The notes: generated by a model from the sequence alone, not told the origin. DNA of 64,000 nucleotides from Planctomycetota bacterium (GCA_044222185.1 JBGANV010000002.1:868711-932710), one strand, 5' to 3'. Shown: positions 30,839 through 53,200, counted from the stretch's first letter. Program-made: numbers and translations.

Positions 30839-30911
30839 ACGCCAGTAGCTCAATTGGCAGAGCAGCTGATTCCAAATCAGCAGGTTGTGGGTTCGATTCC
30901 TACCTGGCGTG
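30839..30911 (+). tRNA. tRNA-Trp (CCA), 3' CCA not encoded
   Basis: Acceptor ACGCCAG/CTGGCGT, D arm GCTC/GAGC, anticodon arm GCTGA-TTCCAAA-TCAGC, T arm GTGGG-TTCGATT-CCTAC. Confidence 0.96.
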
Positions 30912-31096
30912 CTCTAATCTCTTGTGTACGTTAAGGGTTGCGGACGCCTCAGGTTCGGCTCACACTTCGCGCGGGAGATACTGGCGAGATGCTCGCTCGA
31001 TCGCGCGAAGAATCGCCGTCGATCAACGCACCTGGGGTAAGGCCAACCGCACCAAGGCCCTCGACAGGTTCCGACGCGGGATGCGTAGAGAACGGA

Positions 31097-36090: not shown

Positions 36091-36151
36091 GGTGTCGTGC
36101 CTCCGTTCGCCACACAGGAGCCAGCAACTGACGATCGATCCAAGGTCTTTC

Positions 36152-36589
36152 TCAAGGGCACGGAGGAGCGGCGATCGCGGGCGCGGGTTGGTCCCACAGA
36201 ATCGGGAGGACGCGGATCGGGTCGCAGCCTGACCACGCGGAGCGAAGCGCGGCGCCGGTGGCCGCTTCGTCGGCGGCGTGATCCACGCAACGACCGAACG
36301 CGGTGAATCCACCACGCGAGGGCGGCGGTGGAAGGCGATGGTCGGCGAAGTCGTGGTGACGGTAGATGCTCACCATCGCGATGGGCTTTCCGCAGACCAC
36401 GCAGCCCGGCGACCTGATGCTCGCCGTCGCGGCGTCGCGAAGTGTCTGGCAGAACTCGTCACGCTCGGCGATCAACGCATCCTCAGTTCCGTCGGGCACG
36501 CCTTCCCAAGAACACCGCGTGCATCGGTAGCCTCCACGATGGGTCGGGCGGCAGTGAGAGAAACACGCGGGACAAGTCACGTCGTTCAT
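36152..36589 (-). CDS. Hypothetical Cys-rich (zinc-finger-like) protein
   Basis: CPAC, CTRC, CVVC motifs; ATGA overlap with upstream gene. Confidence 0.55.
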   Translation of the reverse strand: MNDVTCPACFSHCRPTHRGGYRCTRCSWEGVPDGTEDALIAERDEFCQTLRDAATASIRSPGCVVCGKPIAMVSIYRHHDFADHRLPPPPSRGGFTAFGRCVDHAADEAATGAALRSAWSGCDPIRVLPILWDQPAPAIAAPPCP

Positions 36590-36963
36590 GGCATAGCCTC
36601 CGAATCAAGAATCACAGGGGTAGAAACTGGTCTCTTTCGCTGGCCCGCGCCCCAACGCCGATCCCGCTGTGCCACGGCCGGCCCGCCCGACGCGAGCCAC
36701 TTCTCGATCGTCTCCCGTGGCCAGAACATCACGCGCTCCGAGAGCTTCATCGGGGCGGGGATGAGTCCCGCGTTCACGAACCGCCGCACCGATCTCTCGT
36801 CGATGTCAAGCATGGCGGCGAGCTGTGCGAGCGTGACGGTGGGGGCGGCCCGCGGCGCACGGAGTTCGCGACGGAGTTCGGCGATCTCTGCGACGAGCGG
36901 CGCAACCGCGGCGGACACGATCCTGGCGAGCGACTCCTCGTCGAGAACGGCGACGGGGGTCAC
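36586..36963 (-). CDS. AlpA/excisionase-like HTH protein
   Basis: TLAQLAAMLDIDERSVRRFVNAGLIPAPMKLSERVMFWPRETIEKWL; GTGA overlap. Confidence 0.8.
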   Translation of the reverse strand: MTPVAVLDEESLARIVSAAVAPLVAEIAELRRELRAPRAAPTVTLAQLAAMLDIDERSVRRFVNAGLIPAPMKLSERVMFWPRETIEKWLASGGPAVAQRDRRWGAGQRKRPVSTPVILDSEAMP

Positions 36964-37265
36964 TTGCACGCCTCCCGGTACGCCCGGTCCACCCGCGCCT
37001 CGATTGCGAGCTTCATCTGGGGGTCGATCGGCAGGGCGAAGGGGTAGTACCCGCCGTTCCGGCTCCTGCGGCGCGGCCATGCCAGGTAGAGCTGACCACC
37101 CTCGTCGCGACGGACGCTGAGGCCGTCGAGCAGGAAGCCTCCCACGAGCACGCGGACATGGGCGAGGAGACCGGCGGCGCGGTCCGCATCCGACGCGATC
37201 GTGACGGCGACGTCGTCGACGGTGACCGAGACCGGGACGGCGCACCTGGGGCAGCGGGTGGTCAT
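36960..37265 (-). CDS. SpoVG-like nucleic-acid-binding protein
   Basis: GLLAHVRVLV..FLLDGLSVRR...LYLAWPRR...YYPFALPI...IE..V..AY pattern. Confidence 0.7.
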   Translation of the reverse strand: MTTRCPRCAVPVSVTVDDVAVTIASDADRAAGLLAHVRVLVGGFLLDGLSVRRDEGGQLYLAWPRRRSRNGGYYPFALPIDPQMKLAIEARVDRAYREACK

Positions 37266-37384
37266 GGAGGACCCTCCGCCTCCGCCGGGAACGTGGCGCC
37301 ACACCACCGGCAGACCCAGCAGTCGCCGAGGCGGACGAGCCTTCCGTCGCAACCGTCCGTCGGGCAGATGACGAAGATGCTCAT
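37262..37384 (-). CDS. 40-aa zinc-ribbon microprotein
   Basis: MSIFVICPTDGCDGRLVRLGDCWVCRWCGATFPAEAEGPP; ATGA overlaps at both ends. Confidence 0.65.
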   Translation of the reverse strand: MSIFVICPTDGCDGRLVRLGDCWVCRWCGATFPAEAEGPP

Positions 37385-37719
37385 CGTCCCTCCCGCTTGA
37401 GCCACGCGTCGAAGACGAAGAGCTGCTCCCAGCTCGGCAGGTCGGTCGGGAAGTCGCAGCCCGTGACGGCGCGGAACGTCTCGAGGTACCCGGCGAGGCC
37501 GTGGCGGCGGCCGAGGTCGATGAAGTTCGGGCGCTTCTGGCCGTCGGGCAGCCAGGCGGTCTCGACGAGCGGGATGATTGCCGCCTTGTGGCGCACGAGT
37601 TCGGCTCGGATGTCGGCCGAGACGACCCCCTCGGGCGCCCAGAACTCGAGCGACACTCCCGAGACTGACAGCACGACGCCGCGGTGTCGGAGCTGCTTGA
37701 GAAGCGTGGGAGGCGTCAT
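37381..37719 (-). CDS. Hypothetical protein with TubC N-terminal docking-domain-like fold
   Basis: LLKQLRHRGVVLSV.G..LEFWAPEGVV...IRAEL.RHK..II pattern. Confidence 0.6.
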   Translation of the reverse strand: MTPPTLLKQLRHRGVVLSVSGVSLEFWAPEGVVSADIRAELVRHKAAIIPLVETAWLPDGQKRPNFIDLGRRHGLAGYLETFRAVTGCDFPTDLPSWEQLFVFDAWLKREGR

Positions 37720-40190
37720 GGGATCACCCCCCGTTCGATCCCCGCCCCGGCTACCGATGCGCCCCCATCGGTGAAGGGTGAAGGGTCGTGAACCACTTCT
37801 CCGGGTTCTCTCCCTACGCGCGTGCGCGTGAAGAGAGATTCCCGGTCTGGTCCTTCACCACCCTTCACCCCTTCACTTTCCGGTGGGGACGGCGGTCGCC
37901 AGACGTTCCCGGCGTTCGTGTGCTGGTTCGTCCACCCCCGCGCGCGAAGCTCCTTGCCGAACGTGGAGTTGCTGCACGTGCGCTCGCCGTTCTCGTCGGT
38001 CCACTTCTTGTAGGTGGCATAGAGCGATGCGCCTCGGAACGCATCGGTGGTCGGGAGTTGCTCTGCAAGAAACCTCGCGATCAGGTCTTCGCCGCTGCGG
38101 TACTTCCGCGTGGCTTCGACGACGACTGCGGGCTCGCCGAGACCGTCGCGGAGCCACATGACGCAGCCACGAACGGCCCACGCGAGAATGCCCATCGCCT
38201 CCGCTCGCAGCGTCTCGGTAAGTGTCTTGTCCTCACGGCCTTTGAAGCTGACGTCGAAGGGTACGATCTTGAGGCGGCGCCAGAAGCCGTCGGAGGAGTC
38301 GGGGACGCGCGGCATGTGGTTGGCCAGCACGGTCAACTTGTGCGTCGGCGGGAACGTCACGAAGTCCTTGTGCATCCCGCGACCCTTGAGGAGGTCCCCG
38401 CCGGTGAGCCACTTCAACCTCTCCTCGCTGAACGTCCCGTTCTTCGGGACCTCGCTCGCGACGACGAATCGGCGGCCGCGCATGTCGAGAATCTCGGTTG
38501 GGTGCCGTTCCCCCTTCTGAACGAGGAGGAGGCCGGGCGGGGCGGGCGTCGCGAACTCACCGCCGAACACGTGCATCAGCGCCTCCACGAACACCGACTT
38601 GCCGTTGCAACCGACGCCCGTCGCGATGACGAGAGCGTGCTCGCGGATCGACCCGGTGAGGCAATAGCCCGCCCACCTCTGGAGGAACTGGATCAGCTCC
38701 TCACGATTCGCCATCACCTCGCGGAGGAAGGCGTCCCAGCGCGGACAGAGCGCGTTTGGGTCGAAGTCGTGGAGCACTGATTTCGTGATCAGGTCCCCAC
38801 GAGCGTGCCGACGGAGAAGTCCCGTCCGAAGGTCCAGCGTGCCGTTCTTGCACGTGAGCAGCCACGGATCCGAGTCCAGCCTCTCCACGCGCAACGCGAC
38901 GGTGGGACTCACGCCGGCAAGATCCAGTGCGCCGGCAATCCGGGACTTCTGCTCCTGCTGCCGCGCAGCCCGGTGGACTTTCTCGTCCGCATCGACGGTC
39001 GAAAGGGTCACGCTTCTCGCGACTTCCGCGCAGAGGTGAAGTGTCTTTCCCGTCACGTCCTCCACCCAGCGAACGCCATCCCAGATGAACCAGGATCTCA
39101 GCGCGCGCACGTAGCGGACGTTTTCGCCGTGGCGCTTGACGAAGCGATTCGCAATCCCGAGGTCGGTGATGAACTCGCTGGCGACCTGGTCGGACGGGCA
39201 GTCCGCGGGTTGCAGCAGCCCCGCAGCGATGAGGAGCTCGGCGCGCGTGCGGCCTGCCGCATGAGCGTCAAGATCGAGCGCGTCACCGTGGAAGCAGCCG
39301 TCCCCCCGGAGGCCTGGTTCAGCATGGCTCGCACTGAAGCAGCACCAGCGGTTCGGATCGTCCGCGAGCGTCCCGAAACACCCGTCGTGACCGCAGCCTG
39401 GGCAAGTGCCTCCCGACTTGGGCCAGTCTCCGGAGTGCACGCGGTTGTACTCGGCGACGGCGGCGTCGAACTTCGCAGCGGACGCACTGTTCGACTTCGT
39501 CCTTCGTTCGGCGTTGCCGTGCGATGCTCGTGGTCTGCGTGGCGCCTTTCCCGTAGTCCACTTCTTCACCGTGTCCGCGAGCGGATGATCAACGAGTCCC
39601 TCGCCGTTCGCATTCGCGTAGTCGATGGCCGCGTCGGCGTCCATTCCGCCGCGCGCCAGAAGAACGGCCGCTCCGAGACACGCCACGCGCTGGTAGAGAT
39701 CGGCGGCGTCGAGTTCCGCAATCGGAGTCGCGGAGTCGGTCCAGTCGATCGACTCGCCGCTCGGATGGACGCTCCCAGGGAACACCGTCGCCCGATCGGC
39801 CCCCCGAAGCTCCACGAGCATCTGCGACTTCACGCCGCGCGGGGCCGGCTCCGCGTACTGCGCGCTCACGACGTTTGCCGAGTGGAAGATCCAGTGCGAA
39901 GCAGGCTTGGAGGTTCGTCCGAAGGTCCGGGTCGCGGGCAGGAACTTCGGCGCGAGTTCGATCGCCTCCTGGCAGTCCAAGTCGACGTCGACGATGCCGT
40001 CCGAGGCTTCGCCGAGCAGCACGGCGACGTTCATCGGCTTACCGTTGGGGAAGTCCTTCTCGAGCGACTCCCGGGCGGCGTCGAGCGTCCGCTTGTTCCA
40101 GCCCTTGCCTGCCGCCTTCGAGCGGAATGGCACGGGGATCGGGACCATGCCCAGGTCCAAGTAGCTGGCCGCTACCTCCCGCGGTGTCAT
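37716..40190 (-). CDS. Prim-Pol + D5/P4-family primase-helicase
   Basis: N-terminal NVAVLLG...DVDLD, H, ELR; D5_N (TDLGIANRF, W.GVRW, KNGTLDL); GVGCNGKS Walker A, ASE, LTGGD, WRRL..VPF. Confidence 0.92.
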   Translation of the reverse strand: MTPREVAASYLDLGMVPIPVPFRSKAAGKGWNKRTLDAARESLEKDFPNGKPMNVAVLLGEASDGIVDVDLDCQEAIELAPKFLPATRTFGRTSKPASHWIFHSANVVSAQYAEPAPRGVKSQMLVELRGADRATVFPGSVHPSGESIDWTDSATPIAELDAADLYQRVACLGAAVLLARGGMDADAAIDYANANGEGLVDHPLADTVKKWTTGKAPRRPRASHGNAERRTKSNSASAAKFDAAVAEYNRVHSGDWPKSGGTCPGCGHDGCFGTLADDPNRWCCFSASHAEPGLRGDGCFHGDALDLDAHAAGRTRAELLIAAGLLQPADCPSDQVASEFITDLGIANRFVKRHGENVRYVRALRSWFIWDGVRWVEDVTGKTLHLCAEVARSVTLSTVDADEKVHRAARQQEQKSRIAGALDLAGVSPTVALRVERLDSDPWLLTCKNGTLDLRTGLLRRHARGDLITKSVLHDFDPNALCPRWDAFLREVMANREELIQFLQRWAGYCLTGSIREHALVIATGVGCNGKSVFVEALMHVFGGEFATPAPPGLLLVQKGERHPTEILDMRGRRFVVASEVPKNGTFSEERLKWLTGGDLLKGRGMHKDFVTFPPTHKLTVLANHMPRVPDSSDGFWRRLKIVPFDVSFKGREDKTLTETLRAEAMGILAWAVRGCVMWLRDGLGEPAVVVEATRKYRSGEDLIARFLAEQLPTTDAFRGASLYATYKKWTDENGERTCSNSTFGKELRARGWTNQHTNAGNVWRPPSPPESEGVKGGEGPDRESLFTRTRVGREPGEVVHDPSPFTDGGASVAGAGIERGVIP
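37770..37877. repeat. Iteron-like inverted repeat cluster (candidate replication origin)
   Basis: GTGAAGG x2 (+GTGAA) at 37771-37792, CCTTCAC x3 at 37852-37876, around a CCGGG..ACGCGCGTGCGCGT..CCCGG imperfect palindrome. Confidence 0.55.
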
Positions 40191-40288
40191 GCGGCGGATC
40201 CGTTGACCGGGAGCTTGCGGCCGACTGGAAGTTGCAAGGTGCGAAGCCGGGGGCGAGAGGCTGAGGGCTGCTTCGCCGTGCGGGTCAT
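40187..40288 (-). CDS. 33-aa microprotein linking HTH and primase genes
   Basis: MTRTAKQPSASRPRLRTLQLPVGRKLPVNGSAA; ATGA overlaps with both neighbours. Confidence 0.45.
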   Translation of the reverse strand: MTRTAKQPSASRPRLRTLQLPVGRKLPVNGSAA

Positions 40289-40497
40289 CGCGGCATCGCC
40301 TCGAGGGGGATGTCGTGTGAGGCTTCGGGCGCACCGGCTTCAAACTGAGCGACCGCCTCCCTCCAGGGGATCCGAATCAGTCTGTCGCCGCACCGAAGGA
40401 ATGGGATCCTGTGCTCCATCACCCAACGGCGAATCGTCCGGATGCTGACGGCGAGTCGGGCGGCCGCCTCCCGGACAGTTACGAGTTCTTCTGACAT
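40285..40497 (-). CDS. Excisionase-family HTH_17 DNA-binding protein
   Basis: LVTVREAAARLAVSIRTIRRWV...IP..R.G..IRI; GGAGGT RBS. Confidence 0.85.
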   Translation of the reverse strand: MSEELVTVREAAARLAVSIRTIRRWVMEHRIPFLRCGDRLIRIPWREAVAQFEAGAPEASHDIPLEAMPR

Positions 40498-40676
40498 CCA
40501 CTTACCTCCGGAGCGGCGCTTTGGCGCTCCGTGGCACGCTATGGATGGTGAAGTTCTCGGCCGAATGGAATTGCGGCACCCGGCGGGGCAACCCGGGGGC
40601 AACTCGAAGGGCAAATCCGCCGGCGACGACCGTCAAGCGCTCGATTCGTGGGGAAAACCCGACGAAGAGCGCGCGA

Positions 40677-41558
40677 CTACTTTTTCTTCGGCTGCGGACG
40701 GTCTTTTCGGTCGGTCACCTCGACGAGCTTGCTCTCGAGCCGCTCCAGGAGGGTGGAAGCGAGGATCTGGTCCACCGTTCCGCGGGCGTCGATCACCCCG
40801 ATCTTCGCTTCCTGCTTCCACGCCGTGAGTCGGGGCTGCGGAATCCCGAAGACGCGCTCGACCGTAGCGCGGTCAAACAGAGTTGCGGGCGAGATCTGCT
40901 TGAGAAGTGTGATCGACTGGCTCAAGCGGAGCACCGAATCCCAACGTTCCGGACGCTGACTTTGGTCGGCATGGAGAAGGTCGCTGATGCGGCGGAAACG
41001 GCCATCGAATTCAATGATGTCGGCCGGCTGTGCGAGATCCTTCCAGAGGGTTGGCTGCTCAGGTCCGTGGCCCGTTCGGAAGTAGCGGACGTGATCTTCG
41101 GGAACGAGATGGTCAAAGTTCCTCGGACTCTCCGAGTGCATGAACTCCTCGATCGGGATCGACTGGTCATCGATCAGGGCCGAAAGGAGGTCTGCGATTC
41201 GATTGTCGTACCCCTCCCTGCGCTCCTCCAGCCAGGACAGCATCTGACGTGCGGCGTCACGCATTGTGCCGGGACCATTGATTTGCGGCACGACTCCCTC
41301 AGCCTTTAGGAGCGCAACCACTCGATCCAGGCAGCGGACAAAATGCAGCGTCTCGGTTCCTGGTGGCTCACCACCTCCCCAGTGGACGGCGTTGTCCAAC
41401 TCGGTCGGTAACGCTAACAGCTTTTGCTGGGCCTCGATTCGTTGCTGTTGCTCTCTCACGGACTGTGCCGCAGCTTCTTGCGCCTTCTTGCGGGCGCGAC
41501 CAATGATGTCCTCCGCGTCGTTCGACGGATCACCAGGCTCAGGCATGACTGTGCTCAT
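40677..41558 (-). CDS. Hypothetical protein (possible C-terminal HTH)
   Basis: Long ORF upstream of the replication operon; no recognisable catalytic motif. Confidence 0.55.
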   Translation of the reverse strand: MSTVMPEPGDPSNDAEDIIGRARKKAQEAAAQSVREQQQRIEAQQKLLALPTELDNAVHWGGGEPPGTETLHFVRCLDRVVALLKAEGVVPQINGPGTMRDAARQMLSWLEERREGYDNRIADLLSALIDDQSIPIEEFMHSESPRNFDHLVPEDHVRYFRTGHGPEQPTLWKDLAQPADIIEFDGRFRRISDLLHADQSQRPERWDSVLRLSQSITLLKQISPATLFDRATVERVFGIPQPRLTAWKQEAKIGVIDARGTVDQILASTLLERLESKLVEVTDRKDRPQPKKK

Positions 41559-42125
41559 ATCGATAACCGCCGGCTGTGTGATCGCCCCTAACAATCGCGG
41601 GGCACGTGCTGCTCACCGATCTTGCACCGCACTGCACCTAACGCATTAGCCGTAATCAGCGTCCCATTTCCTACAGTCTCGGACCCTCACCCGATGCGAA
41701 CTTGCACTTCTTGCACCGAACTTCACCGGGTTTCGGATCGTTCGAGGGCCAATTGTATCGCCACTTCGTTCGCATCTCTTGCCCTGGTCAAGGGCAACGA
41801 ACCAGCGGGGACTCGCGAGGGTGGCGTCGGCCCGATCGGACGGTGCAAGTCGCGCACGACATCGGGGGGAGGCGCGTCCCCCGGAAACCCCCCGGTTTCG
41901 CGAGGAACTGCGCGGGAGATGGGGTGGCTCGGGTCACCAGACTGCCGTGCATTCCACCTGCACCGTCGCGCCCGGACCGGGGCGTCCTGGTGCACGAAGA
42001 CGCAGAAGACCTTCACCAGGTCGGGCCGGCGACGTAGAATCTCGGCCGTCGGGCTTCATCTCTAAGGCGGCGCGTCGCCGCACCCTCCAAGTCCCGCCCG
42101 GCACGGCTTTCGGCTTGGAGACTCC

Positions 42126-43478
42126 ATGCCCGCGAACTCGCTCACGATCCGGCGCCGGCCGATCGCATCCCTCGTCCCTGATCCCGCGAACGCGCGTCGG
42201 CACCCCGACGAAAACCTCGAGGTGATCACCGCGTCCCTCCGCCGCTTCGGCCAAGCGGAGCCACTTGTCGTGCAGGCGAAGACGGGGCGCATCATCGCCG
42301 GGCACGGTCGCCTCACGGCCATGAAAGCGTTGGGATGGAGCGAGGCGGACGTTGTCGAGCTGGACGTCGATGACATGACGGCGACCGCGCTGGGAATCGC
42401 ACTCAACAAGAGTGCACTTTCCGCGGAGTGGGACGACGAGGTCCTCGCGAAGATCCTCTCCGAGCTGCGTGACGCCGGCGCCATGGATGGTGTCGGATTC
42501 AGCGACGCGGACGTGGACGAGTTGCTCTCGGACGTCGGCGATGTTGCGGAAGACGATCCGCCGCTGCCGCCCGACAGCCCCGTCACCAAGCGCGGCGATC
42601 TGTGGATTCTCGGGCGACACCGGCTCCTGTGCGGCGACTCCGGCAGCGTGGAGGACCTCGATCGCCTGCTGGCGGGCGCCCCCATCCACCTCGTCAACAC
42701 GGACCCGCCGTACAACGTGAAGGTCGAGCCCCGCTCGAACAACGCGATCGCGGCCGGCTTGTCTTCGTTCCAGGGCACGACGCACCACCAGTCCCTCGAC
42801 GTAGCGCGGGACCCCGGCAAGGCGAAAGGGACGACGCGGAAGCTGCGCGCGAAGGACCGCCCGCTGGCGAACGACTTCGTTTCCGACGAAGCGTTCGACG
42901 CGCTCCTCGACGCGTGGTTCGGGAACATCGCGCGCGTGCTCGTGCCGGGCGGCGGGTTCTATATCTGGGGCGGCTACGCGAACCTCGGCAACTACCCGGC
43001 GCCGCTCCGGAGGAACGGCCTCTATTTCAGCCAGGCGATCGTGTGGAACAAGCTCCATCCCGTCCTTACGAGGAAGGACTACATGGGGTCGTTCGAGCTG
43101 GCATTCTATGGATGGAGGGAAGGCGCCGGGCATGTCTTCTACGGGCCGAACAACGCCACGGACATTTGGGAGATTCAGAAGGTCGCACCCGTGAAGATGG
43201 TCCACCTGACCGAGAAGTGCGTCGAACTCGCTGCCCGCGCCATCGGCTACTCGTCCCTCATCAATCAGAACGTACTCGACCTCTTCGGCGGGTCGGGCTC
43301 GACGCTGATGGCGGCGGAGCAGACGAACCGTCGCGCGTTCCTCATGGAACTCGACGAGGCGTACTGCGATGTGATCGTCACGCGCTGGCAGAACGCGACG
43401 GGCCAGGCCGCGACGCTGGAATCCGGCCAGTCGTTCAATGCCGTCGCCGCTGAACGAGGAGTCGAACTGACGCCATGA
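42126..43478 (+). CDS. ParB-like N-domain fused to phage-type N6A/N4C DNA methyltransferase
   Basis: NARRH...FG..EPL...IIAGHGR; HRLLCGDS, TDPPYNV, VLDLFGGSGST, MELD..YCDVI..RW. Confidence 0.9.
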   Translation: MPANSLTIRRRPIASLVPDPANARRHPDENLEVITASLRRFGQAEPLVVQAKTGRIIAGHGRLTAMKALGWSEADVVELDVDDMTATALGIALNKSALSAEWDDEVLAKILSELRDAGAMDGVGFSDADVDELLSDVGDVAEDDPPLPPDSPVTKRGDLWILGRHRLLCGDSGSVEDLDRLLAGAPIHLVNTDPPYNVKVEPRSNNAIAAGLSSFQGTTHHQSLDVARDPGKAKGTTRKLRAKDRPLANDFVSDEAFDALLDAWFGNIARVLVPGGGFYIWGGYANLGNYPAPLRRNGLYFSQAIVWNKLHPVLTRKDYMGSFELAFYGWREGAGHVFYGPNNATDIWEIQKVAPVKMVHLTEKCVELAARAIGYSSLINQNVLDLFGGSGSTLMAAEQTNRRAFLMELDEAYCDVIVTRWQNATGQAATLESGQSFNAVAAERGVELTP

Positions 43479-43936
43479 CCCGCAGGCTCCCGCCAGACGC
43501 ATTCGAGAGCTACCTCTCGCTCGGCCCGTCCAGGACCTACGGCGCCATCGCGGAGATGTTCGGCGTCTGCAAGCGGTCGGTGTGCACGCGCGCGAAGAAG
43601 GAGAACTGGCAGGAGCGCGTCGTACAGCAGGAACGCGCGGCCCGGGAGCAGGCCCAGAAGAAGGCCGTCGAGTCGCTCGAGGAGATGAACGAGCGCCACC
43701 TCCGGCTCGTGCGCCTGATCCAAAATCGTGCCATCGAGGCGTTGAAGAACATGCCGCTCGACAACGCGAACGCCGCCGCGAAGGCGCTCGCCGCCGCCGT
43801 CGACCAGGAGCGGGTGATCCGCGGCGAGCCCTCCGACCGCTCCGCGATCGACATCGCCACGATCATCAAGAAGGAGTACGAGACGTTGATGCTCAAGCCG
43901 GGAGAGAAGGATGACTGGGGCGCAACCGGCAGTTGA
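43475..43936 (+). CDS. Putative terminase small subunit (HTH + coiled coil)
   Basis: N-terminal HTH (RTYGAIAEMFGV...RAKKENW); position between MTase and TerL. Confidence 0.65.
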   Translation: MTRRLPPDAFESYLSLGPSRTYGAIAEMFGVCKRSVCTRAKKENWQERVVQQERAAREQAQKKAVESLEEMNERHLRLVRLIQNRAIEALKNMPLDNANAAAKALAAAVDQERVIRGEPSDRSAIDIATIIKKEYETLMLKPGEKDDWGATGS

Positions 43937-45188
43937 CCTCCGCGTCTCGAAGCGCGCGCTGTTCGAGTCGCTCGGGTATCGCCCGCATGCGGGGCAGATC
44001 CAGATCCACCGCTCCACCGCGAGCCGACGCGTGGTTGCGTGCGGCGTTCGCTGGGGCAAGACCCTCGCCGCCGCGGCCGAGGGCGTGGCGGCTGCGATGA
44101 TGCCGTCGAAGCGGTCGGTCGGCTGGGTGGTCGGGCCGACGTATGACCTATGCGATCGCGTCTTCCGCGAGATCGTCGTGCTGGTCGCCGAGCATCTGCG
44201 GCACCGGATCGTGAGCCTGAAAGAGCACGACCGGCGCCTCGTGCTTCGGAACCTGGGCGGCGGTCTGTCCGAGATCCGTGGGAAGTCGGCCGACAACCCG
44301 GTCTCGCTCCTCGGGGAGGGACTGGACTGGCTCGTGATCGATGAAGCCGCCCGGCTCCGCCCGCACATCTGGGAATCGCACCTGACACAGCGCCTCATCG
44401 ACCGGAAGGGATGGGCGCTGATGATCTCGACGCCCCGGGGGAAGGGCTGGTTCTACGAAGCATGGAAGCGCGGGCAGGGCGCTGATCCTGAGTACCAGAG
44501 CTGGAACTTGCCAAGCTGGACGAACCCCATGCTCGACGCATCGGTGATCGAGCAGGAACGAGAGCGGCTGCCGGAACGCGTCTTTTGCCAGGAGTTCGGC
44601 GGCGAGTTCCTCGAGGGGTCGGGATCCGTGTTCCGCTACGTCCGGGACGTCGCGACGGGAACGTTCTCGGCTCCGGACCCCGGCGAGGTCTACTACGCTG
44701 GACTCGACCTCGCGCGCGTCCACGACTTCACGGTGCTCGTCGTCATGGATTCCCAGCGCCGTGTCGTGTTCGTCGACCGCTACACGCGCCTCGACTGGTC
44801 GCTGCAGGTCCAGCGGATCAAGGCGGTCGCCGATCGCTACGGCGCGACGGTGCTCTGCGACTCGACCGGAAGTGGCGAGCCCGTCTACGAGTCCCTGCTT
44901 GCGGCCGATGTGTCCGTCGAGCCGTATCCGTTCACGATGAAGTCGAAGTCCGCGCTCATCGACAACCTCGCGCTGCGGCTCGAGCAGCGGCAGATCACGC
45001 TCCCGCGCGTGGATGTCTGCCCCGAGCTCATCGATGAGTTGGAGGCGTTCGAGTACTCGATCACTGAGCAGGGCAACGTGAAGACCGGTGCGCCTGGCGG
45101 CTGCCACGACGATTGCGTCATCGCTCTCGCGCTCGCCACGTGGCAGGTCGGCGACGCGTGGATGCCCACGATCATGTGGGTCGATTGA
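43911..45188 (+). CDS. Terminase large subunit, copy 1
   Basis: H.GQ, CGVRWGKT, VIDEAA, ISTPRG; nuclease GLDLA...DFT, DSTG, HDDCVIA. Confidence 0.88.
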   Translation: MTGAQPAVDLRVSKRALFESLGYRPHAGQIQIHRSTASRRVVACGVRWGKTLAAAAEGVAAAMMPSKRSVGWVVGPTYDLCDRVFREIVVLVAEHLRHRIVSLKEHDRRLVLRNLGGGLSEIRGKSADNPVSLLGEGLDWLVIDEAARLRPHIWESHLTQRLIDRKGWALMISTPRGKGWFYEAWKRGQGADPEYQSWNLPSWTNPMLDASVIEQERERLPERVFCQEFGGEFLEGSGSVFRYVRDVATGTFSAPDPGEVYYAGLDLARVHDFTVLVVMDSQRRVVFVDRYTRLDWSLQVQRIKAVADRYGATVLCDSTGSGEPVYESLLAADVSVEPYPFTMKSKSALIDNLALRLEQRQITLPRVDVCPELIDELEAFEYSITEQGNVKTGAPGGCHDDCVIALALATWQVGDAWMPTIMWVD

Positions 45189-46459
45189 TGGGCCAGACCA
45201 CGAACGCCACGTTCAGCAAGCGCGCATTGTTCCAGATGCTCGGCTACGGGCCGCATTCGGGGCAGGTCGAGGTCCATCGATCCTTGGCGCCTCGTCGCGT
45301 CGTCGCGTGTGGAGTGCGATGGGGCAAGACGCTGGCTGCCGCTGCCGAGGGGATCGCCGCTGCGATGGCCCCGGCGGATCGCTCCGTCGGCTGGGTCGTG
45401 GCGCCGACCTACGACCTCGCCGACCGCGTGTTCCGCGAGATCGTGCTGCTCGCGGCGTCCCACCTCCGCCATCGAATCGTCGCCTTGAAGGAGCACGAGC
45501 GCCGACTGGTCCTCCGGAACCTCGGTGGCGGGCTGTCGGAGATCCGGGGCAAGAGCGCCGACAATCCGGTGTCCCTTCTCGGCGAAGGCCTCGACTGGTT
45601 GATCGTAGACGAGGCGGCGCGCCTCAAGCCCATGATCTGGGAGTCGCACCTCTCGCAGCGGCTGATCGACAAGCGGGGGTGGGCGCTGCTCATCTCGACA
45701 CCGCGAGGAAAGGGGTGGCTCTTCGACGCGTGGCGCCGCGGGCAGCCCGGCGGCGATCCTGACTTCCAGTCGTGGAACCTGCCGTCCTGGACGAATCCAC
45801 TCCTCGACGCCGCGCTCATCGAACAGGAGCGCGAGCGCCTCCCCGAGCGGGTGTTCCGCCAGGAGTACGGTGGCGAGTTCCTCGAAGGCGCGGGGCAGGT
45901 CTTCCGCGGCGTGCGAGACTGCGCGACGGGCGCGTTTGAAGAACCGAAGCCCGGCGTTCGCTACGTCGGCGGTCTCGACCTCGCGAAAGTCGAGGACTTC
46001 ACCGTGCTCGTGATCATTGATCCCGAGCACCGCGTCGTCCACGCAGAACGGTTCCATCGAGAGGACTGGTCGACGCAGGTTGCGCGCATCAAGGGAGTCG
46101 CGGGCCGCTACAACGACGCTCGTCTCACGGTGGACACGACGGGTGCGGGCGAGCCGGTTTTCGAGACGTTGCGGGCCGCGGGCGTGCGCGTGGACGCATA
46201 CCCATTCACGTCGCGCTCGAAGTCGGCCTTGATCGACAACCTCGTCCTCCTAATCGAGCGGCGGGAGATCGTGCTGCCGAGTCCTCTCGTCTGGCCCGTG
46301 GGCATCGACGAGCTCGAGGCATTCGAGTTCACAGTCGGCGAAACCGGGAACATCAAGACCGGCGCGCCGTCGGGAATGCACGACGACTGCGTGATCGGCG
46401 TGGCGCTTGCCGCATGGCAATTTCGACCTCGCCAGAAGGCGGGGGTCTACGTTCTCTGA
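45188..46459 (+). CDS. Terminase large subunit, copy 2 (tandem paralog)
   Basis: Same intact motifs (CGVRWGKT, IVDEAA, ISTPRG, GLDLA, DTTG, HDDCVIG); TGATG coupling to copy 1. Confidence 0.88.
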   Translation: MGQTTNATFSKRALFQMLGYGPHSGQVEVHRSLAPRRVVACGVRWGKTLAAAAEGIAAAMAPADRSVGWVVAPTYDLADRVFREIVLLAASHLRHRIVALKEHERRLVLRNLGGGLSEIRGKSADNPVSLLGEGLDWLIVDEAARLKPMIWESHLSQRLIDKRGWALLISTPRGKGWLFDAWRRGQPGGDPDFQSWNLPSWTNPLLDAALIEQERERLPERVFRQEYGGEFLEGAGQVFRGVRDCATGAFEEPKPGVRYVGGLDLAKVEDFTVLVIIDPEHRVVHAERFHREDWSTQVARIKGVAGRYNDARLTVDTTGAGEPVFETLRAAGVRVDAYPFTSRSKSALIDNLVLLIERREIVLPSPLVWPVGIDELEAFEFTVGETGNIKTGAPSGMHDDCVIGVALAAWQFRPRQKAGVYVL

Positions 46460-46571
46460 AGCGAGTTTCCCACGCTCGAAAGGGGTCCAGAATCCACTGG
46501 ATCTGTGCCGCGAGACGAGGCTCCATGTGTCGCACGCGCAGGCGATGGTGCCGGCGCGAATGGAGCTCGCG

Positions 46572-46787
46572 ATGACGCTCAGGCTGATCCCGGTCCCAGA
46601 GACATTCGCGCCGGATCCCACACTATGGGACGCGGTCGTCGACGCATGGGATGTGGACGAGTTCGAGGCGATCACGGCGGGGCTGAACGGGATCCCGGTC
46701 CCAGGACGCCTTCCGGATGGATCGCTCGTGCTCGTGATCCCGGGCAAGGCCGCGGTCATCGACGCGCCGAAGGAGACGATGCGATGA
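46572..46787 (+). CDS. Small hypothetical protein
   Basis: GGAG RBS; ATGA overlap with next gene. Confidence 0.5.
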   Translation: MTLRLIPVPETFAPDPTLWDAVVDAWDVDEFEAITAGLNGIPVPGRLPDGSLVLVIPGKAAVIDAPKETMR

Positions 46788-47296
46788 CCAAGAAGACGAC
46801 GAAGAAGCCGACCGCGGAACCCGAGGCGAACTGGATGAAGAACCGCGTCGCGACGGCGCGGAAAAAGACGAACGGGACGGAGCCGCCTGCGGAGGTGAAC
46901 GGTACGCCGCCGTCGGAGAACCATGCGCCGGAAGCCGCGTTCGGGACGGTGCCCGAGCTGCCCACTCCGAATGATGGCCCCGCCACGCTGAAGACGATCG
47001 CCGACCGTTGGCTGAACGACATGCGCGCGCGCGGGAAGACACCGTCGACCGTCGCGAGCTACCTGGGCGACCTCGGCCTCGCGATGAAGTTCTTCGAGGC
47101 ATCGAGAGTCGCGCGTTCGATCACCGCTGACGACATCGCCGCATTCGAAGCGAGCGACCTCGTCACGAAGACGAAGAAGGGGAAGTCCAAGGCACAGCCG
47201 ACGATCCTCAAATCGCGCCGCGCGTTTCGACTCGCCATGACCTGGGCGAGGGAGACCGGCGTGATCACGACGACGCCCTACGCGACCGCGAGCTGA
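46784..47296 (+). CDS. Stand-alone integrase core-binding (SAM-like) domain protein
   Basis: WLNDM.ARGK.PSTVASY..DL...ITADDIAAF...RAFRLAM.WA..G.I; no catalytic domain. Confidence 0.65.
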   Translation: MTKKTTKKPTAEPEANWMKNRVATARKKTNGTEPPAEVNGTPPSENHAPEAAFGTVPELPTPNDGPATLKTIADRWLNDMRARGKTPSTVASYLGDLGLAMKFFEASRVARSITADDIAAFEASDLVTKTKKGKSKAQPTILKSRRAFRLAMTWARETGVITTTPYATAS

Positions 47297-47352: not shown

Positions 47353-48186
47353 GTGAATCTCCAAGCCGCCCTCGATCAGTTCTTGATTCAGCTCCAAGCC
47401 GATGGCCGTTCCACGCACACGGTGGCGCAGTACCGGCGCTACGTCCGCGAATTCCAGGACTGGTGGGCGGGCGACGACGTCGGCGCGATCGGCCATCGCG
47501 ACATCGCGGCGTTCCTCGCCGCCCCGGAGACACGCGCAAGCCGGCGGGCCGTGACGATGAACGCGCTCCGCACATCGCTGCGCATGTTCTTCCGGTACCT
47601 GCACGAGGCGGGCGTCGTGGCGCAGAACCCGGCAAGGCTCGTTCGCCGCGCGTTGACCGGAGTGCCCATGCCCCGCACGCTCACGGACGACGAGCGGGAC
47701 CGATTCCTCGCGGCCGTCACCGTGCATCCGAGGGACCACCTCTTATTCAACCTGATGCTCTCGACGGGGATCCGGGTCGGATCTGCCGTGGCGCTGGACG
47801 TGGAGGACGTCGACATGGATCGCCGAGAGCTTCGGATCCGCACGGCGAAGGGCGATCGGCCCGAGGCGGTCTACCTCGGGTCCGCGATCGTGGATCACCT
47901 TCGCGGCTACCTCGGAGAACGCCGGAGCGGCCCGCTGTTCCCAGGTCGCGGATCTGATCGGCTCACGACGCGGCACGTTCGCCGACGGTTCGCAGCGTGG
48001 GGTCGGACGGCCGGGATCGCCCGTCGCGCCAGCCCCCACACGCTGCGGCACACGTTCGCGACGACGCTGCTCCGACGATGCGGGGATGTCACGGTCGTGC
48101 AGGCCGCGCTCCGGCATCGGAGCATCACGAGCACGTTGGTCTACGCCCGCGCGAGAGAGGATCAGGTGAAATCGGCGATGGCGTGA
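47353..48186 (+). CDS. XerC/XerD-like tyrosine recombinase
   Basis: S.HTV.QY, SLRMFFRYL, TGIRVG, AKG, SPHTLRHTFAT, LRH.SI.ST.VY. Confidence 0.9.
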   Translation: MNLQAALDQFLIQLQADGRSTHTVAQYRRYVREFQDWWAGDDVGAIGHRDIAAFLAAPETRASRRAVTMNALRTSLRMFFRYLHEAGVVAQNPARLVRRALTGVPMPRTLTDDERDRFLAAVTVHPRDHLLFNLMLSTGIRVGSAVALDVEDVDMDRRELRIRTAKGDRPEAVYLGSAIVDHLRGYLGERRSGPLFPGRGSDRLTTRHVRRRFAAWGRTAGIARRASPHTLRHTFATTLLRRCGDVTVVQAALRHRSITSTLVYARAREDQVKSAMA

Positions 48187-50255: not shown

Positions 50256-53200
50256 TTGGCGCGAAAGCGTTCGACTTCCCGTCCACTCGACGACGCCAAC
50301 GCGGAATCAGAGAGCTCGATGACCGCCGAGGACCCAGGCGTCATCTCGCTGGCCGACGCGCGAGAACGGATGGTGCGTGCGTTCCGCTTCCTCGCGGAGG
50401 CTGCGCGCCGCCGGGAACCGCAGCGGCTCACGTGGCGCGATTACGAATGGAGCCTGCCGTTGTGGGAACTGCCGGACCATCCGGTGATTGAGAGACTGTT
50501 CTTGGACCCGGAGTCGGCGGTCTTCCTCCGTGTCGGACGCGCGGACGAGATTCCTTGCCCACCGCCTCCCCCGGAACTCCGCGATTGGCTTCGCGGCGGG
50601 TGGGAGAGTCCGAGCACTCGCGACCCGTCAGTGCTTCCGATTCGCGTTGAGCGTCTTCGGGTCGGAGAGGGTGAGGCGAACAACGGGGCGCCGCCATCCG
50701 GCTGGCCTGCTGCCTCCGCGGACGGATGGCACGAGAAGTTCGGCGAGGTGAGATTCGATACCGACCCTGCTCGGATCGCGGCCCTCGCCGAGTGGTCGAC
50801 TGTTCGATCAACCTGGCGTGAGACCGCGCATCCGGCATGGGCGGCCCGCCAGCTCTTCGAGCGACTGTTCGCGCTGAAAGGGCGCTTCGACCGCGAGTCC
50901 GAACGAACGACACTATTCTTGGGATTCGGCCTGCTGCGAGTGTCCGCTCCCGCCGGAAAGGTCGACCATCCGTTGCTCGTCCAACGCTGCGAACTGCGCT
51001 TCGACCCTCGCGTCCCGCACTTCGAGATAGTGTCGTCCGACGAACCAGTTGCGTTGGCGACGGCGCAGCTCCGCGATCTCGGAGTGGACGGTCGTGCGCT
51101 GGCGAACCTTCGGTCAGCCGTCAGCTCGAAACTGATGAAGGTCGGCGATTCCGAGTCACGAGCTTTTCTCTTGGACGCTGCGCACACCCTGTTCGCCGAC
51201 GCCCGAGTGCTCTCGCGTGACGAGGTGAAGGCGGCGCAGCCGGATTCCACTCCGATCGTCGTCGAGCAACTCGTCGCATTCGCTTCGAGCCGGAGTGGCC
51301 GCGTTCGGGACGCCATGGACGAAATGGCTGAACGCCTCTCCATCGCCGCGTCGCTGCCAGGACCGCTGCAGGCGCTGCTCCTCGCCGCCACCGTCGAGGA
51401 CGATCCATCGAGAATCACCCCGACCGACGACCATCCATCCGGTGGTCCAGCCGGCCAGTCACTGGCGAGCGGCGTGCCGCAGGCGCAATCGACTTCGTGG
51501 TTCGGTAACCCGCTCTTCACGAAGCCCGCGAATAACGAGCAGGCTGAGATCGTCGCGGCGATGGTCGAGCATGGCGCGGTGGCGGTTCAGGGGCCTCCCG
51601 GTACCGGCAAGACGCACACGATTGCGAACCTCATCGGGCACTTGTTGGCAATCGGGAAGTCGGTGCTCGTCACGAGTCACTCAACGAAGGCGCTTCGAGT
51701 ACTTCGAACGCAGGTTGTGCCGGAACTCCGACCCCTGTGCGTCAGCGTGCTCGATCGAGACGCCGAAAACACAGCGCAACTCGAGGAGTCGGTGAAGGGG
51801 ATCGTCTCGTACCTGTCGATCCCCGCGTCGACGTACAGCCGCGACGCGGAAGCCCTCACACAGCGGCGTGCGAGTCTGCTCGGCAAGATCGACGAAGTCG
51901 ATCGAAAACTGCTCACCGCCGTCCGAGCGCAGTACGACCCCCTCGTTCTCGATGGACGATCGTGGACTCCATCCGAGGCGGCGCGCATCGTCTCCGCAGA
52001 GCGTCGTCACGCGGCGTGGATTCCCGGGCCGTTGGAGCCTGGCGCCGGCCTCCCGCTTGCCGAAGCGGAGGTGATGCGTCTCTACCGATCGAACGCGGAG
52101 CTTCCCACCGCGGTTGAGGCCCTTCTCCGGTCCCGCCTCCCCGACATCAAAGCGCTCCCGAGTGTCGACGAGTTCAACGCAGCCGTCGAACGGCTTCGGC
52201 GCTGCCGCGAGGCTGTGTCGGTGCACGATTCGGGGGTCTGGACCAAGGTCACCTGTGAACGCGCGGCTGCGACACGCGCTCTCGAAGTCGTGGAGGCGGC
52301 GTTCGCGCTGATCGACGATGACGCAGGCTACGTCGCGCTTGTCGATGAGTCCTGGCGGGACGGGCCGCGGGCACAGGTGTGGCGTGAGTTCGCCGCGTAC
52401 CTCGAGAACACAGCAGCGGAGATCGAGGAACTTGAGGCTGCGATCGCCATTCAGGCGCCAACCTATGAAGGCCCCTGGCCCGTGAATCGCAGGCGCGACG
52501 TCGTCGCGGAGATCATCGTTCACCTCTCCGCAGGAAAGAGCCTTGGTCGGCTCGCATTGGCCCTCCATCGGGATTGGAAGGAGCTCATTTCTTCGTCCAT
52601 CGTCGCGGACCAGCCCCCGTCCACTCTCGAGGACTTCCAGGCCCTCGACGTGGCGTTTGACATCGAGGCGCGGCGCTCAGAACTCCTCCGCAGATGGCGC
52701 GTTCAGGCCGACGTCCTCGGATGGGCCACAGCGGAGGAACTGGGCGCACGCCCGGAGCAGAGTGCCGAGCAGTGGGCACAACGCATCGCCGCAGCAATCC
52801 AGTGGCGTGAACAAGCCTGGAATCCTGTTGCCGAGGCATTCGCTGAACTCGGATTTGATTGGAAGAAGTCACTCCTGACGGTGGCGCCCCGTCCGGGCCC
52901 GGAGGTCCTGCGACTCAGGGATGCCGCGATCGAACGCTGGCCGGTCCTGATCGAAGCGAAGCTGTCCACGAATGAGCTGGCGGCGACGCAGGATCGAGTC
53001 CGACGCTGGCAGTCGGCTCTCCTTGCCGCGGACCAGACGGACGCCGTCCAACGCGTTGCAGATGCCGTGCGCCGAGAGGACCTCGACAATTACGCGGTCT
53101 CGTACGCGATCTTGGTCGACGTCATCGGCCGTCAAGCTCTCAAACAGGATCGAGAGGTCCTCCTCACTCGTCTCGAATGCGCCGCACCGGCGTGGGCTGG

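Follow-up and report, generated by a model that had tools for sequence, protein, structure and literature searches.

Two intact terminase large subunit genes in tandem in a capsid-less integrative element of a Planctomycetota bacterium

Two intact, tandem terminase large subunit (TerL) genes, TerL1 and TerL2, follow a small terminase subunit gene (TerS) in a 64-kb stretch of a Planctomycetota genome (GCA_044222185.1); this whole analysed stretch is referred to here as the window. The genes belong to an integrative element of ~13 to 17 kb, which combines the packaging operon with an integrase, a PrimPol-D5 primase, a Xer-like recombinase, and defence-type cargo, and which has no virion genes. 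The duplication is an old one, with purifying selection acting on both copies. The element is probably a phage satellite, and the capsid-less island most likely travels inside capsids made by other phages. The reading that we prefer, and put forward tentatively, is that this satellite carries its own terminase with two alternative portal-proximal domains.

The features of the element are listed in Table 1; genes were called with a GC3 script made for this analysis in place of a standard gene finder. The open reading frames agree with the first-pass annotation, which had described a TerS gene followed by two intact TerL genes coupled by TGATG: the TGA stop codon of TerL1 (45186-45188) shares a base with the ATG of TerL2 (45188-45190). 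The methylase and TerS genes meet at an ATGA, and the last 26 nt of TerS lie within TerL1, so the coupling throughout is operon-like. The ParB-methylase gene at the head of the operon is also conserved upstream of TerS in relatives. Each TerL was identified by Pfam (Terminase_6C, 1.5e-10 for TerL1 and 4e-9 for TerL2; Terminase_6N, 6.9e-5 and 2.2e-4, the TerL2 score of 21.4 bits falling slightly short of the 22-bit cut-off) and by phrog_2, "terminase large subunit" (2.4e-39 and 1.5e-41), with profile matches covering both the ATPase and nuclease domains. TerS is 88% identical to the TerS of a sister element on contig C14 of the same genome, and its family, phrog_6299, also includes the TerS of a true phage, L026.

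Table 1. Features of the element and its surroundings, with positions counted from the first letter of the window
Feature	Position	Strand	Evidence or remark
tRNA-Trp, likely integration target	30839..30912	+	ARAGORN
DUF2290 protein, cargo	31939-32619	-	Pfam DUF2290 1.7e-8; PADLOC DUF2290 model 9.3e-13
UvrD-like helicase, cargo	32616-34835	-	Pfam UvrD_C_2 8e-12; PADLOC Helicase model 7.2e-146
Int1, tyrosine integrase	34873..36315	-	Pfam Phage_integrase 4.7e-22; phrog_1 3.9e-53
SpoVG-like small protein beside integrase	36960..37352	-	Pfam SpoVG 5.7e-5, under curated cut-off
Small protein, TubC_N-like docking domain	37381..37719	-	Pfam TubC_N 1.1e-11
PrimPol/D5_N/DUF5906 primase-helicase, replication module	37716..40343	-	D5_N 1.2e-30; Prim-Pol 2.1e-9; phrog_6088 6.9e-117
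Divergent intergenic and small-ORF region between replication and packaging modules	40344..42125	.	ORFs without known family
ParB-N-domain/N6-N4 DNA methyltransferase fusion, first gene of operon	42126..43478	+	Pfam N6_N4_Mtase 9.3e-23, ParB_N 5.8e-5; phrog_498 1.9e-115
TerS, small terminase subunit	43475..43936	+	phrog_6299 1.7e-15
TerL1, upstream copy, 425 aa	43911..45188	+	Pfam, PHROGs, alignment, motifs
TerL2, downstream copy, 423 aa	45188..46459	+	Pfam, PHROGs, alignment, motifs
Protein with integrase SAM-like N-terminal (core-binding) domain only	46505..47296	+	phrog_1 8.3e-7
XerC/D-like tyrosine recombinase, family core gene	47353..48186	+	Pfam Phage_integrase 6.6e-33, SAM_1 6.5e-11
Small regulator-like ORF	48264-48575	+	Probable cargo
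RAMA/HSDR_N nuclease	48636-49727	-	Probable cargo
1659-aa SF1 helicase with MTES_1575/DUF559 endonuclease domain	50256..55235	+	Pfam; PADLOC PDC-S37 2.1e-47, MkoC/MkoA/Hhe-like matches

TerL1 and TerL2 are identical at 292 of 402 aligned residues (73%). The first-pass annotation had proposed an old duplication under purifying selection, pointing to identical peptide blocks with different codons and to the retention of Walker A/B, the coupling motif, and the nuclease aspartates in both copies; each of these points was borne out. The DNA alignment contains the identical block with AAG TCG in one copy and AAG AGC in the other, and codons differ at 144 of 295 identical residues. The Nei-Gojobori method gave a dN of 0.25, a dS of 1.21, and a dN/dS of 0.21 over 418 codons. 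Walker A, Walker B, and the coupling motif read GVRWGKT, DWL(V/I)(I/V)DEA, and ISTP in the two proteins, and the three acidic nuclease positions lie in GLDLA, D(S/T)TG, and HDD; the Lys, Asp, Ser, and Thr of the ATPase motifs are invariant in all 85 family members. Both TerLs are full-length with intact catalytic motifs and, as judged from these sequence features, both are very probably functional.

The closest solved relatives by sequence are the large terminases of Thermus phages P74-26 and G20c (PDB 4zni, 5tge, and 5m1f), with PDB profile matches of 1e-42 for the ATPase domain (4zni) and 2e-28 (~1e-28) for the nuclease domain (5tge). They share the Walker A, Walker B, coupling, and acidic nuclease motifs with the island TerLs but come from virion-encoding phages with one TerL each. 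A further difference is a Leu (SLLG) in both TerLs where the deposited P74-26-like ATPase-domain sequences have Arg or Ala. We take the Arg position (..NLRG..) to be the trans-acting arginine finger of the P74-26 terminase, and neither TerL has an arginine there. More distant phages have LRG; since the Leu is common to the whole island clade and phage L026, it is a trait of the clade and not a sign of decay.

An assembly or binning artefact that fused the TerL genes of two strains might be considered, given that the genome is a metagenome-type assembly in 16 contigs, but it is extremely improbable. The two genes are merely 73% identical, the tandem arrangement is also found in three other loci, and independent contigs from two studies (runs X1, X2, and X5) cross the TerL1/TerL2 junction without any difference. 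A 1,630-base contig of X1 covers 43810-45439 with 0 differences, as does a contig of X5, from another study, over 45102-45339. The earlier view that the pair is not an assembly artefact is thus upheld.

The span from Int1 to Xer is 13.3 kb. The tRNA-Trp is likely the integration target, although no att repeat was found and the 64-kb window contains no second copy of the tRNA 3' end. Between the tRNA and the integrase, the DUF2290 protein and the UvrD-like helicase form a candidate anti-phage pair, as predicted from their profile matches. Homologues of Int1 lie at the ends of the related elements L013 and L014, and the SpoVG-like protein is conserved in the family (tblastn matches in C14, L011, L013, L014, and L020). 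No AlpA match was obtained among the scanned island ORFs; the SpoVG-like protein and small ORFs without known family are there instead. The six candidate ORFs between the replication and packaging modules had no Pfam or PHROG match, and the one promoter-like site in this region (42012-42040) is not above chance. Downstream of TerL2, the conserved integrase-N-domain protein occupies the place of a phage's portal gene. Its best match in the ESM Atlas (0.95) is an unnamed cluster, and those listed matches that bear Pfam annotation (0.91-0.93) are integrase SAM-like families; homologues were found in C14, L010, and 12 of 79 metagenome loci. The Xer-like recombinase is present in 29 of the 79, although many of these loci do not extend far enough to reveal it. 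The same RAMA/HSDR_N nuclease also comes after Xer in L175, and the 1659-aa SF1 helicase is a candidate defence gene and putative member of the island.

According to PADLOC, defence-type cargo adjoins both elements of this genome. Defence cargo is a feature of known satellites. It also bears on the proposal that one TerL packages while the other sabotages a helper, by occupying procapsids or cutting DNA, and so defends the host. Known satellites disturb helper packaging, according to excerpts from 10.1101/2024.04.22.590561 and PMC5052747. However, TerL1, TerL2, and TerS matched no PADLOC model, and with full motor and nuclease motifs in both TerLs neither bears the mark of a decoy; we consider interference improbable.

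The element had been described as having no portal, capsid, or tail genes, and our searches agree. None was found among the island ORFs by Pfam or PHROGs or in the 17.5 kb from TerL2 to the contig end, which is also the right end of the window; the possibility raised in the first-pass annotation, that portal and capsid genes of the same element lie just beyond the window, was not borne out. In the element's own genome (93.8% complete), five queries, for PF04860, PF05133, PF05065, and the portal and capsid of L026, all came back empty. Portal, capsid, tail, and lysis families were absent from the 101 ORFs of nine related loci, and tblastn with the portal, protease, and capsid protein of L026 matched 0 of 79 metagenome loci. 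L026 has the closest TerL from a true phage (54% identical), and genes for a portal, a protease, a major head protein, a neck, and a tape measure come after its TerS and TerL. In the island, TerL2 is followed instead by the integrase-N-domain protein and the recombinase, with no prophage head, tail, or lysis modules, and a complete or defective tailed prophage was rejected. The TerL clade of the family adjoins the TerL of this siphovirus-like phage; the comparison suggests a phage origin for the island terminase, in support of our preferred reading.

The island is a member of a conserved family of ~9- to 12.5-kb integrative elements, which share the gene order ParB-methylase, TerS, TerL, integrase-N-domain protein, Xer-like recombinase, variable primase, SpoVG-like protein, and integrase, and which occur in records titled Planctomycetota and other environmental phyla. 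Alternatively, it might not be a satellite at all: it might be what is left of a domesticated prophage, or an integrative element whose terminase processes the element's own DNA without a capsid, for example by cutting replication concatemers. In keeping with this, the window and the contigs of public runs, whose joints are unreliable, yielded neither a helper phage nor an excision junction, att repeat, or packaged form, and the methylase and recombinases could have other roles. Against it, the related elements are syntenic, end in an integrase, and border on host genes, the genomes G000, G358, and G240 each contain several of them, and TerS and TerL retain a phage-like operon and motifs; a remnant would also leave purifying selection across phyla unexplained. 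We regard this alternative as unlikely.

Among known satellites, the island resembles classical PICIs and SaPIs (~10 to 15 kb) in having an integrase, a primase-replicase, its own TerS, which redirects packaging there, and accessory defence genes without virion genes. These rely on the TerL of the helper, whereas in the island family TerL is a core gene, sometimes doubled, and the island has two. In the available excerpts of PMC10085698 and PMC10690885, PICIs carry TerS, and terL with capsid genes marks capsid-forming PICIs (cf-PICIs), in agreement with the background given in the first-pass annotation; PMC10085698 lists terL among the genes that separate the two. The island is like a cf-PICI, as those excerpts describe it, in being an integrative satellite with phage-captured TerS and TerL, an integrase, and a primase. 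It differs in that cf-PICIs encode a major capsid protein, portal, protease, head-tail connectors, and HNH, none of which was found in the island or its relatives, and in its tandem TerL, which is not among the cf-PICI features described in these excerpts. Identity with a cf-PICI was ruled out by the absence of virion genes from the window, the nine related loci, the 79 metagenome loci, and, with the five queries, the genome. VEIMEs, PICMIs, and tycheposons are likewise small integrative elements, mostly without capsid genes, some having TerS and "motor-like ATPases" (10.1101/2022.07.26.501625, in excerpt); a figure legend in PMC12822802 gives terminases for 8% of VEIMEs. A TerS-TerL operon or tandem TerL is not among the features in these partial descriptions, on which the comparison is based and which leave room for overlap with the island family.

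Tandem TerL genes were found in four independent loci: the window, L006, L020 (identical to L164), and L163. The arrangement, for which a search of other genomes had been suggested, therefore recurs, and neither copy is decaying. A single TerL was found in 33 of 35 assessable related metagenome loci (tandem in 2) and in 12 of the 14 genomes that contain a close relative (tandem in 2), as well as in the sister element on C14. Because most family members have one TerL, the second copy is dispensable. This disfavours the heteromeric motor of the first-pass annotation as an obligate arrangement; in such a motor, TerL1 and TerL2 would form mixed pentamers on the portal. The TGATG coupling does suggest co-expression, and the ATPase halves of the window pair, the halves that form the ring in solved terminase motors, are 82% identical. 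Nevertheless, the L006 and L163 pairs are uncoupled, with gaps between the genes, and a literature text search found no precedent. We conclude that a mixed motor is quite unlikely.

Most of the difference between the two copies lies in the C-terminal nuclease half and tail; the ATPase half is conserved. Across the four tandem loci, the ATPase halves are 80-88% identical and the nuclease halves 62-74%. Among 84, tandem partners rank 2nd to 3rd for the N half, but for the C half the two copies of the window come only 40th and 13th. TerL2 corresponds to the single TerL of C14 (C-domain 91% identical), with a C-domain dN of 0.056 against 0.33 for TerL1-TerL2, and in all four loci it is the downstream copy whose C half matches the nearest single-copy relative. 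TerL1 has a family-typical ATPase domain and the more diverged nuclease domain. The C half, however, is the faster-evolving half throughout the family (identity of 61.8%, versus 72% for the N half), and this may be enough to account for faster divergence after duplication.

In our preferred reading, the satellite would bring its own terminase holoenzyme: TerS would recognise element DNA, and TerL would dock onto helper-encoded procapsids, pump the DNA in, and cut it. TerL1 and TerL2 would then be alternative motors that share one TerS and have almost the same ATPase ring, each presenting a different portal-proximal domain. If so, the element could use more than one type of helper portal or cope with a changing one. 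In the excerpted description of the HK97 motor, the portal sits immediately above the nuclease domains (PMC10359639). Since the copies differ mainly in the nuclease domain, the two helper specificities of the first-pass annotation are mildly favoured among its three mechanisms. A point against this is that the portal-binding TerL domain differs between published models; in T4, the ATPase domain has been placed at the portal. Different portal or helper specificities for the two TerLs are possible but doubtful.

The TerLs of single-copy relatives look like mosaics, their N half being of the upstream type and their C half of the downstream type. The TerL of L142, compared with the L163 pair, has an N-half dS of 0.50 to copy A and 0.71 to copy B and a C-half dS of 0.49 to copy B and 0.89 to copy A, with blockwise switching between the copies. 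For the C14 TerL compared with TerL1/TerL2, the count of A-like against B-like informative sites was 78 to 51 before codon 182 and 35 to 172 after it. Tandem pairs may be long-lived yet unstable, with recombination between copies yielding a single chimeric gene, of which the C14 TerL would be an example. In AU tests, the simple tree ((TerL2,C14),TerL1) was rejected by neither half: the C half gave p = 0.37 with a {TerL1,TerL2,C14} clade, and the N half p = 0.13 with a {TerL2,C14} clade. Because the simple tree is left standing, the chimera reading of the window pair rests on a bootstrap of 100 and on the site counts, which unequal rates could partly produce.

These results also bear on a rather unlikely alternative, in which the TerLs are redundant paralogues kept for dosage or by chance, without distinct roles, the upstream copy drifting under relaxed constraint and collapse to one gene being normal. 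Tandem pairs are rare, the single chimeric genes are intact, the AU tests are compatible with simple in-situ duplication, and the C-half dN/dS is higher in the upstream copy (0.33 versus 0.09). On the other hand, dS has reached ~1 to 1.4 between the copies without a stop or frameshift in 425 codons, every catalytic residue is kept, and the same asymmetry is found in four of four independent loci.

The first-pass annotation had described an intact tandem pair of large terminase genes behind a small terminase gene, TerS, with the pair coupled by TGATG, and every point of that description was borne out by the ORFs, the Pfam and PHROGs assignments, the motifs, and the junction. Genes in the window were called with a custom GC3-based script, without a gene finder. 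The four packaging-region genes form an operon-like array, joined by ATGA between the methylase and TerS, a 26-nt overlap between TerS and the upstream large subunit, TerL1, and TGATG between TerL1 and the downstream copy, TerL2. The TerL family profile matched the solved ATPase domain from Thermus phage P74-26 (4zni, 1e-42), as well as the nuclease domains 5tge and 5m1f (about 1e-28). Both TerLs retain intact Walker A and Walker B motifs, the ISTP coupling motif, and the GLD, D-x-TG, and HDD acidic positions.

Features of the element and its surroundings in the window
Feature	Position	Strand	Remark
tRNA-Trp	30839-30912
DUF2290/helicase pair	31939-34835		defense type; PADLOC model matches; between tRNA-Trp and integrase
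Tyrosine integrase	34873-36315	-	upstream of packaging operon
SpoVG-like protein		-	between integrase and primase-helicase
Small TubC_N-like protein	37381-37719	-	112 aa; between integrase and primase-helicase
PrimPol-D5 primase-helicase	37716-40343	-
ParB-N/DNA-methylase fusion	42126-43478	+	first of four operon-packed genes
TerS	43475-43936	+	small terminase by Pfam/PHROGs
TerL1	43911-45188	+	425 aa; large terminase by Pfam/PHROGs
TerL2	45188-46459	+	423 aa; large terminase by Pfam/PHROGs
Integrase SAM-like N-domain-only protein	46505-47296		downstream of TerL2
Xer-like recombinase	47353-48186		downstream of TerL2
Helicase-endonuclease	50256-55235		1659 aa; defense type; PDC-S37/Mokosh-like PADLOC matches
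RAMA nuclease	48636-49727		Pfam
Direct repeats, 75-140 nt	55490-55740, 60169-60350, 62728-62964, 63921-64000		74-91% identical; near contig end
Tn3-type DUF4158 transposase fragment	58608-59024

TerL1 and TerL2 are 73% identical, with a synonymous codon change at 144 of the 295 identical residues; dN is 0.25 and dS is 1.21, and the resulting dN/dS of 0.21 upholds the earlier reading of shared peptides in differing codons, kept under selection. The pair is not an assembly artifact, as had been argued from the codons: the TerL1/TerL2 junction is spanned without mismatch by independent contigs from three public sequencing runs, X1 and X2 belonging to one study and X5 to another. At TerL1 residue ∼134 and TerL2 residue ∼131 (..SLLGEG..), both copies have Leu where the P74-26 TerL has an Arg, its trans-acting arginine finger. 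The position is Leu throughout the island clade and in the nearest true phage locus, L026, Arg in remoter phage relatives, and Ala in the mutant 4znj; the Lys found ten residues upstream (..KSAD..) is conserved.

Divergence between the copies is concentrated in the nuclease half. Across the family (85 members), mean identity is 72% in the ATPase half (residues 12 to 175) and 61.8% in the nuclease half (residues 236 to 412), and the corresponding values within tandem pairs are 82% and 62% for the window, 80% and 66% for the related locus L006, and 88% and 74% for L163. Tandem partners rank second or third of 84 in the ATPase half, and the window partners only 40th and 13th in the nuclease half. 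For the nuclease half, dN is 0.33 between TerL1 and TerL2 versus 0.056 between TerL2 and the TerL on C14, a contig of the same genome that carries a sister element with a single TerL. The tails beyond the last conserved Trp are entirely different in TerL1 and TerL2. Among the window copies and C14, dN/dS is below 0.35 everywhere. One rival explanation is that the two genes are redundant paralogues with no special roles; against it stand the retained motifs and the recurrence of the same asymmetry between the copies in all four tandem loci.

Comparison with single-copy relatives points to exchange between the copies. In all four tandem loci, the nuclease half of the nearest single-copy relative is 75 to 96% identical to the downstream copy versus 60 to 75% to the upstream copy; in the ATPase half, the single relative is equally near or nearer to the upstream copy (90 versus 85, 79 versus 76, and 90 versus 90). 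Synonymous sites are not saturated in the comparison of L163 with the related locus L142, and the dS of L142 is 0.50 to the upstream and 0.71 to the downstream copy in the ATPase half, and 0.89 and 0.49, respectively, in the nuclease half; informative sites change allegiance in blocks. Such switching would be the expected trace of recombination between the copies of a pair, and the L142 TerL is likely a chimera of an upstream-type ATPase half and a downstream-type nuclease half, judging from these sequences.

The C14 TerL has a similar pattern. Before codon 182, 78 informative sites are upstream-like and 51 downstream-like, and after it the counts are 35 and 172 (maximal chi-squared, 67.6), figures that could be inflated by faster change in the TerL1 nuclease half. 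Domain trees place C14 with TerL1 in the ATPase half and with TerL2 in the nuclease half, with a bootstrap of 100 each. The AU test rejected a single tree, that with a {TerL1,C14} clade in the nuclease half (P = 0.0016). Since the alternative {TerL2,C14} clade in the ATPase half was not rejected (P = 0.13), we regard the C14 TerL as a probable but unproven chimera. A foreign origin of the TerL1 nuclease half was considered and dropped, as a {TerL1,TerL2,C14} clade in that half stands in the same test (P = 0.37).

A search for the arrangement in other genomes, suggested by the first-pass annotation, found tandem TerLs in three further independent loci, making four in all: the window, L006, L020, and L163. 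L020 and L164 are 100% identical over 6421 bases and were counted once, as were L006 and a pair in one sampled genome that has the same figures against the query. Of the 35 metagenome loci that extend 1300 bases or more beyond the first TerL, 2 have a tandem pair, one of them being the L020 duplicate; pairs also occur in 2 of 14 genomes and in 1 of 80 viral loci. They are rare but repeated, and motifs are kept in all complete TerL copies; within the family, the tandem pair is thus a recurrent and persistent arrangement confined to a minority of members. A further rival is a mixed pentamer of TerL1 and TerL2, which, if obligate, would be the least compatible with the many relatives that have a single TerL. 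Two other departures from the usual operon were seen. In L183 (1863 to 2707), a lone TerL is preceded by two tandem TerS-like genes, 33% and 52% identical to the window TerS, so duplication in the packaging operon is not confined to TerL. In L013 (241 to 1257) and L014 (441 to 1454), the TerL matches only the ATPase half (residues 10 to 234) and continues into, or precedes, sequence without a Pfam or PHROG family; these may be a further case of a nuclease half replaced or lost.

The island had been described as lacking structural genes, and none was found among the scanned window ORFs: portal, capsid, protease, tail, and lysis proteins were matched by 0 of 37 with Pfam and 0 of 25 with PHROGs. 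Among 15 ORFs of relatives and 6 of the window, all without a known family, no structural PHROG was detected, and two ORFs of the related locus L012 were identified as primase parts. The window ends with the contig, 17.5 kb past TerL2. Five queries against the assembly (Phage_portal, SPP1_portal, the HK97-type capsid family, and the L026 portal and head protein) gave no match, which at 93.8% completeness does not prove absence. The search for att sites yielded neither a direct repeat of the tRNA-Trp 3' end nor a match to a generic T-arm pattern. Joints in public-run contigs were set aside as evidence of excision, all sides being at most 35 letters at 90% likeness. A promoter and terminator scan was not above chance.

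The sister element on C14 (518506 to 530869) has the order tRNA-Pro, defense-type genes, integrase, DUF3854/DUF927 primase, Xer-like recombinase, SAM-like protein, TerL, TerS, and ParB-methylase. Its two modules are co-directional, as in L013, L020, and L182; in the window (34873 to 48186), the packaging-plus-Xer module diverges from the primase-integrase module, and L199 is arranged likewise. No flanking inverted repeats were found. Only short imperfect inverted repeats surround the packaging module of the window, so there is no case for an invertible segment despite the difference in orientation.

Relatives were found at 14 loci of the species-genome collection. Most of the close ones are in Planctomycetota-titled records; one Gemmatimonadota and one "Deltaproteobacteria" record also carry them. 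The recurring order is methylase, TerS, TerL, (SAM-like), Xer, unknown, variable primase, SpoVG-like, and a tyrosine or large serine recombinase, with host genes directly past the recombinase; in L154, the methylase sits between TerS and TerL. No virion family was found among 101 scanned ORFs of the 132 called by the custom script in these loci, the remainder being under about 90 aa, overlapping a larger ORF, or four of L021. A metagenome scan gave 79 loci with a TerL 58 to 77% identical. TerS lies immediately upstream of TerL in 71 of 72 assessable loci, an Xer gene is visible in 29, and the methylase-to-recombinase distance is about 8.7 to 12.6 kb where both ends share a contig; the L026 portal, protease, and head protein matched in none of the 79. 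Within the phylum, 14 of 401 sampled genomes, this one included, carry a close relative (E < 1e-170), three of them at two or three separate places. The only close loci in the viral collection (n = 80) are L020 and L021, both islands of this type. Next comes L026, a true phage with the same TerS family and a TerL 54% identical; portal, protease, head, neck, and tape-measure genes come after the two. The remaining viral loci are at most 44% identical, and the island TerLs thus group tightly, with a phage lineage as their neighbor.

The family consists of integrative, multi-copy, virion-less elements with a complete, conserved terminase operon of phage origin, and in some members there are two TerLs, both functional in appearance, whose nuclease halves differ. 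From this we infer that the elements are phage satellites, and we draw the role of the second TerL in the same way. Interference with helper phage, or a non-satellite use of the terminase, are rival explanations; TerS, TerL1, and TerL2 matched no PADLOC model. The tandem-TerL finding is real, extends beyond this one locus, and fits best among the phage satellites, as a variant of them. As satellites, the elements would use their own TerS and TerL to fill helper procapsids with their DNA, bringing the whole packaging enzyme and taking the shell alone from the helper. In the HK97 motor, the nuclease domains lie directly below the portal (PMC10359639); by analogy, it is the half in which TerL1 and TerL2 diverge that would contact the helper. 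The pair would then fit alternative helper or portal specificities, served by one TerS and near-identical ATPase rings. The portal-proximal nuclease half may be a swappable specificity module, and a cycle in which the gene is duplicated in tandem, the upstream copy diverges, and recombination collapses the pair into a chimera could retune which helper capsids an element can fill, with the window at the two-module stage. Taken jointly, an undescribed, widespread satellite class that steals only the shell, a swappable nuclease half, and a TerL cycle that retunes helper range make a tentative proposal that we consider rather unlikely to hold in every part.

PICIs bear TerS, and terL with head and connector genes marks cf-PICIs (PMC10085698); cf-PICIs and Streptomyces satellites encode portal and capsid beside both terminase subunits (PMC10690885). 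By those accounts the window island differs from PICIs in having its own TerL, in two copies, and shares TerS and TerL with cf-PICIs but has no portal or capsid found in the window. EPIPs have TerS, with no TerL listed, and VEIMEs are mostly without capsid genes, some having TerS and "motor-like ATPases" (10.1101/2022.07.26.501625). We found no description in the literature of a capsid-less satellite with TerS and TerL, or of tandem intact TerLs; supplements to the VEIME preprint and SatelliteFinder might list some. If correct, the proposal places a satellite strategy between PICIs (TerS only) and cf-PICIs (whole head), with its own motor and a stolen shell. It would operate in phyla from which we know of no studied satellite. 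Tandem pairs and chimeric relatives would be natural domain swaps, with near-identical ATPase and different nuclease halves, and so a direct handle on the old question of whether portal and DNA-end specificity resides in the ATPase or the nuclease half of TerL. The elements carry defense genes, and their route of transfer therefore matters for the spread of anti-phage systems in environmental bacteria.

Defense-type genes flank both elements of this genome; at C14, a PDC-M26A-like AAA protein is paired with a PD-(D/E)XK partner, and an Mrr type IV enzyme is also present (L004, 2668 to 6874; L005, 5337 to 6365). The TubC_N-like protein of the replication module matches the TubC N-terminal docking domain above the cutoff (1.1e-11), a feature of NRPS/PKS systems that is odd in a mobile element. 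Direct repeats at four places near the contig end surround the transposase fragment and two large CarboxypepD_reg/unknown proteins; they may represent the ends of a transposon or copies of the 3' region of a gene, and could account for the contig break. Adjoining a related island, L008 (15977 to 18515) encodes a 5-hmdU DNA kinase (HMUDK_hel, 2e-111) and a MazG_C protein, genes of the thymidine-hypermodification pathway that suggest DNA modification in that element or its neighbor.
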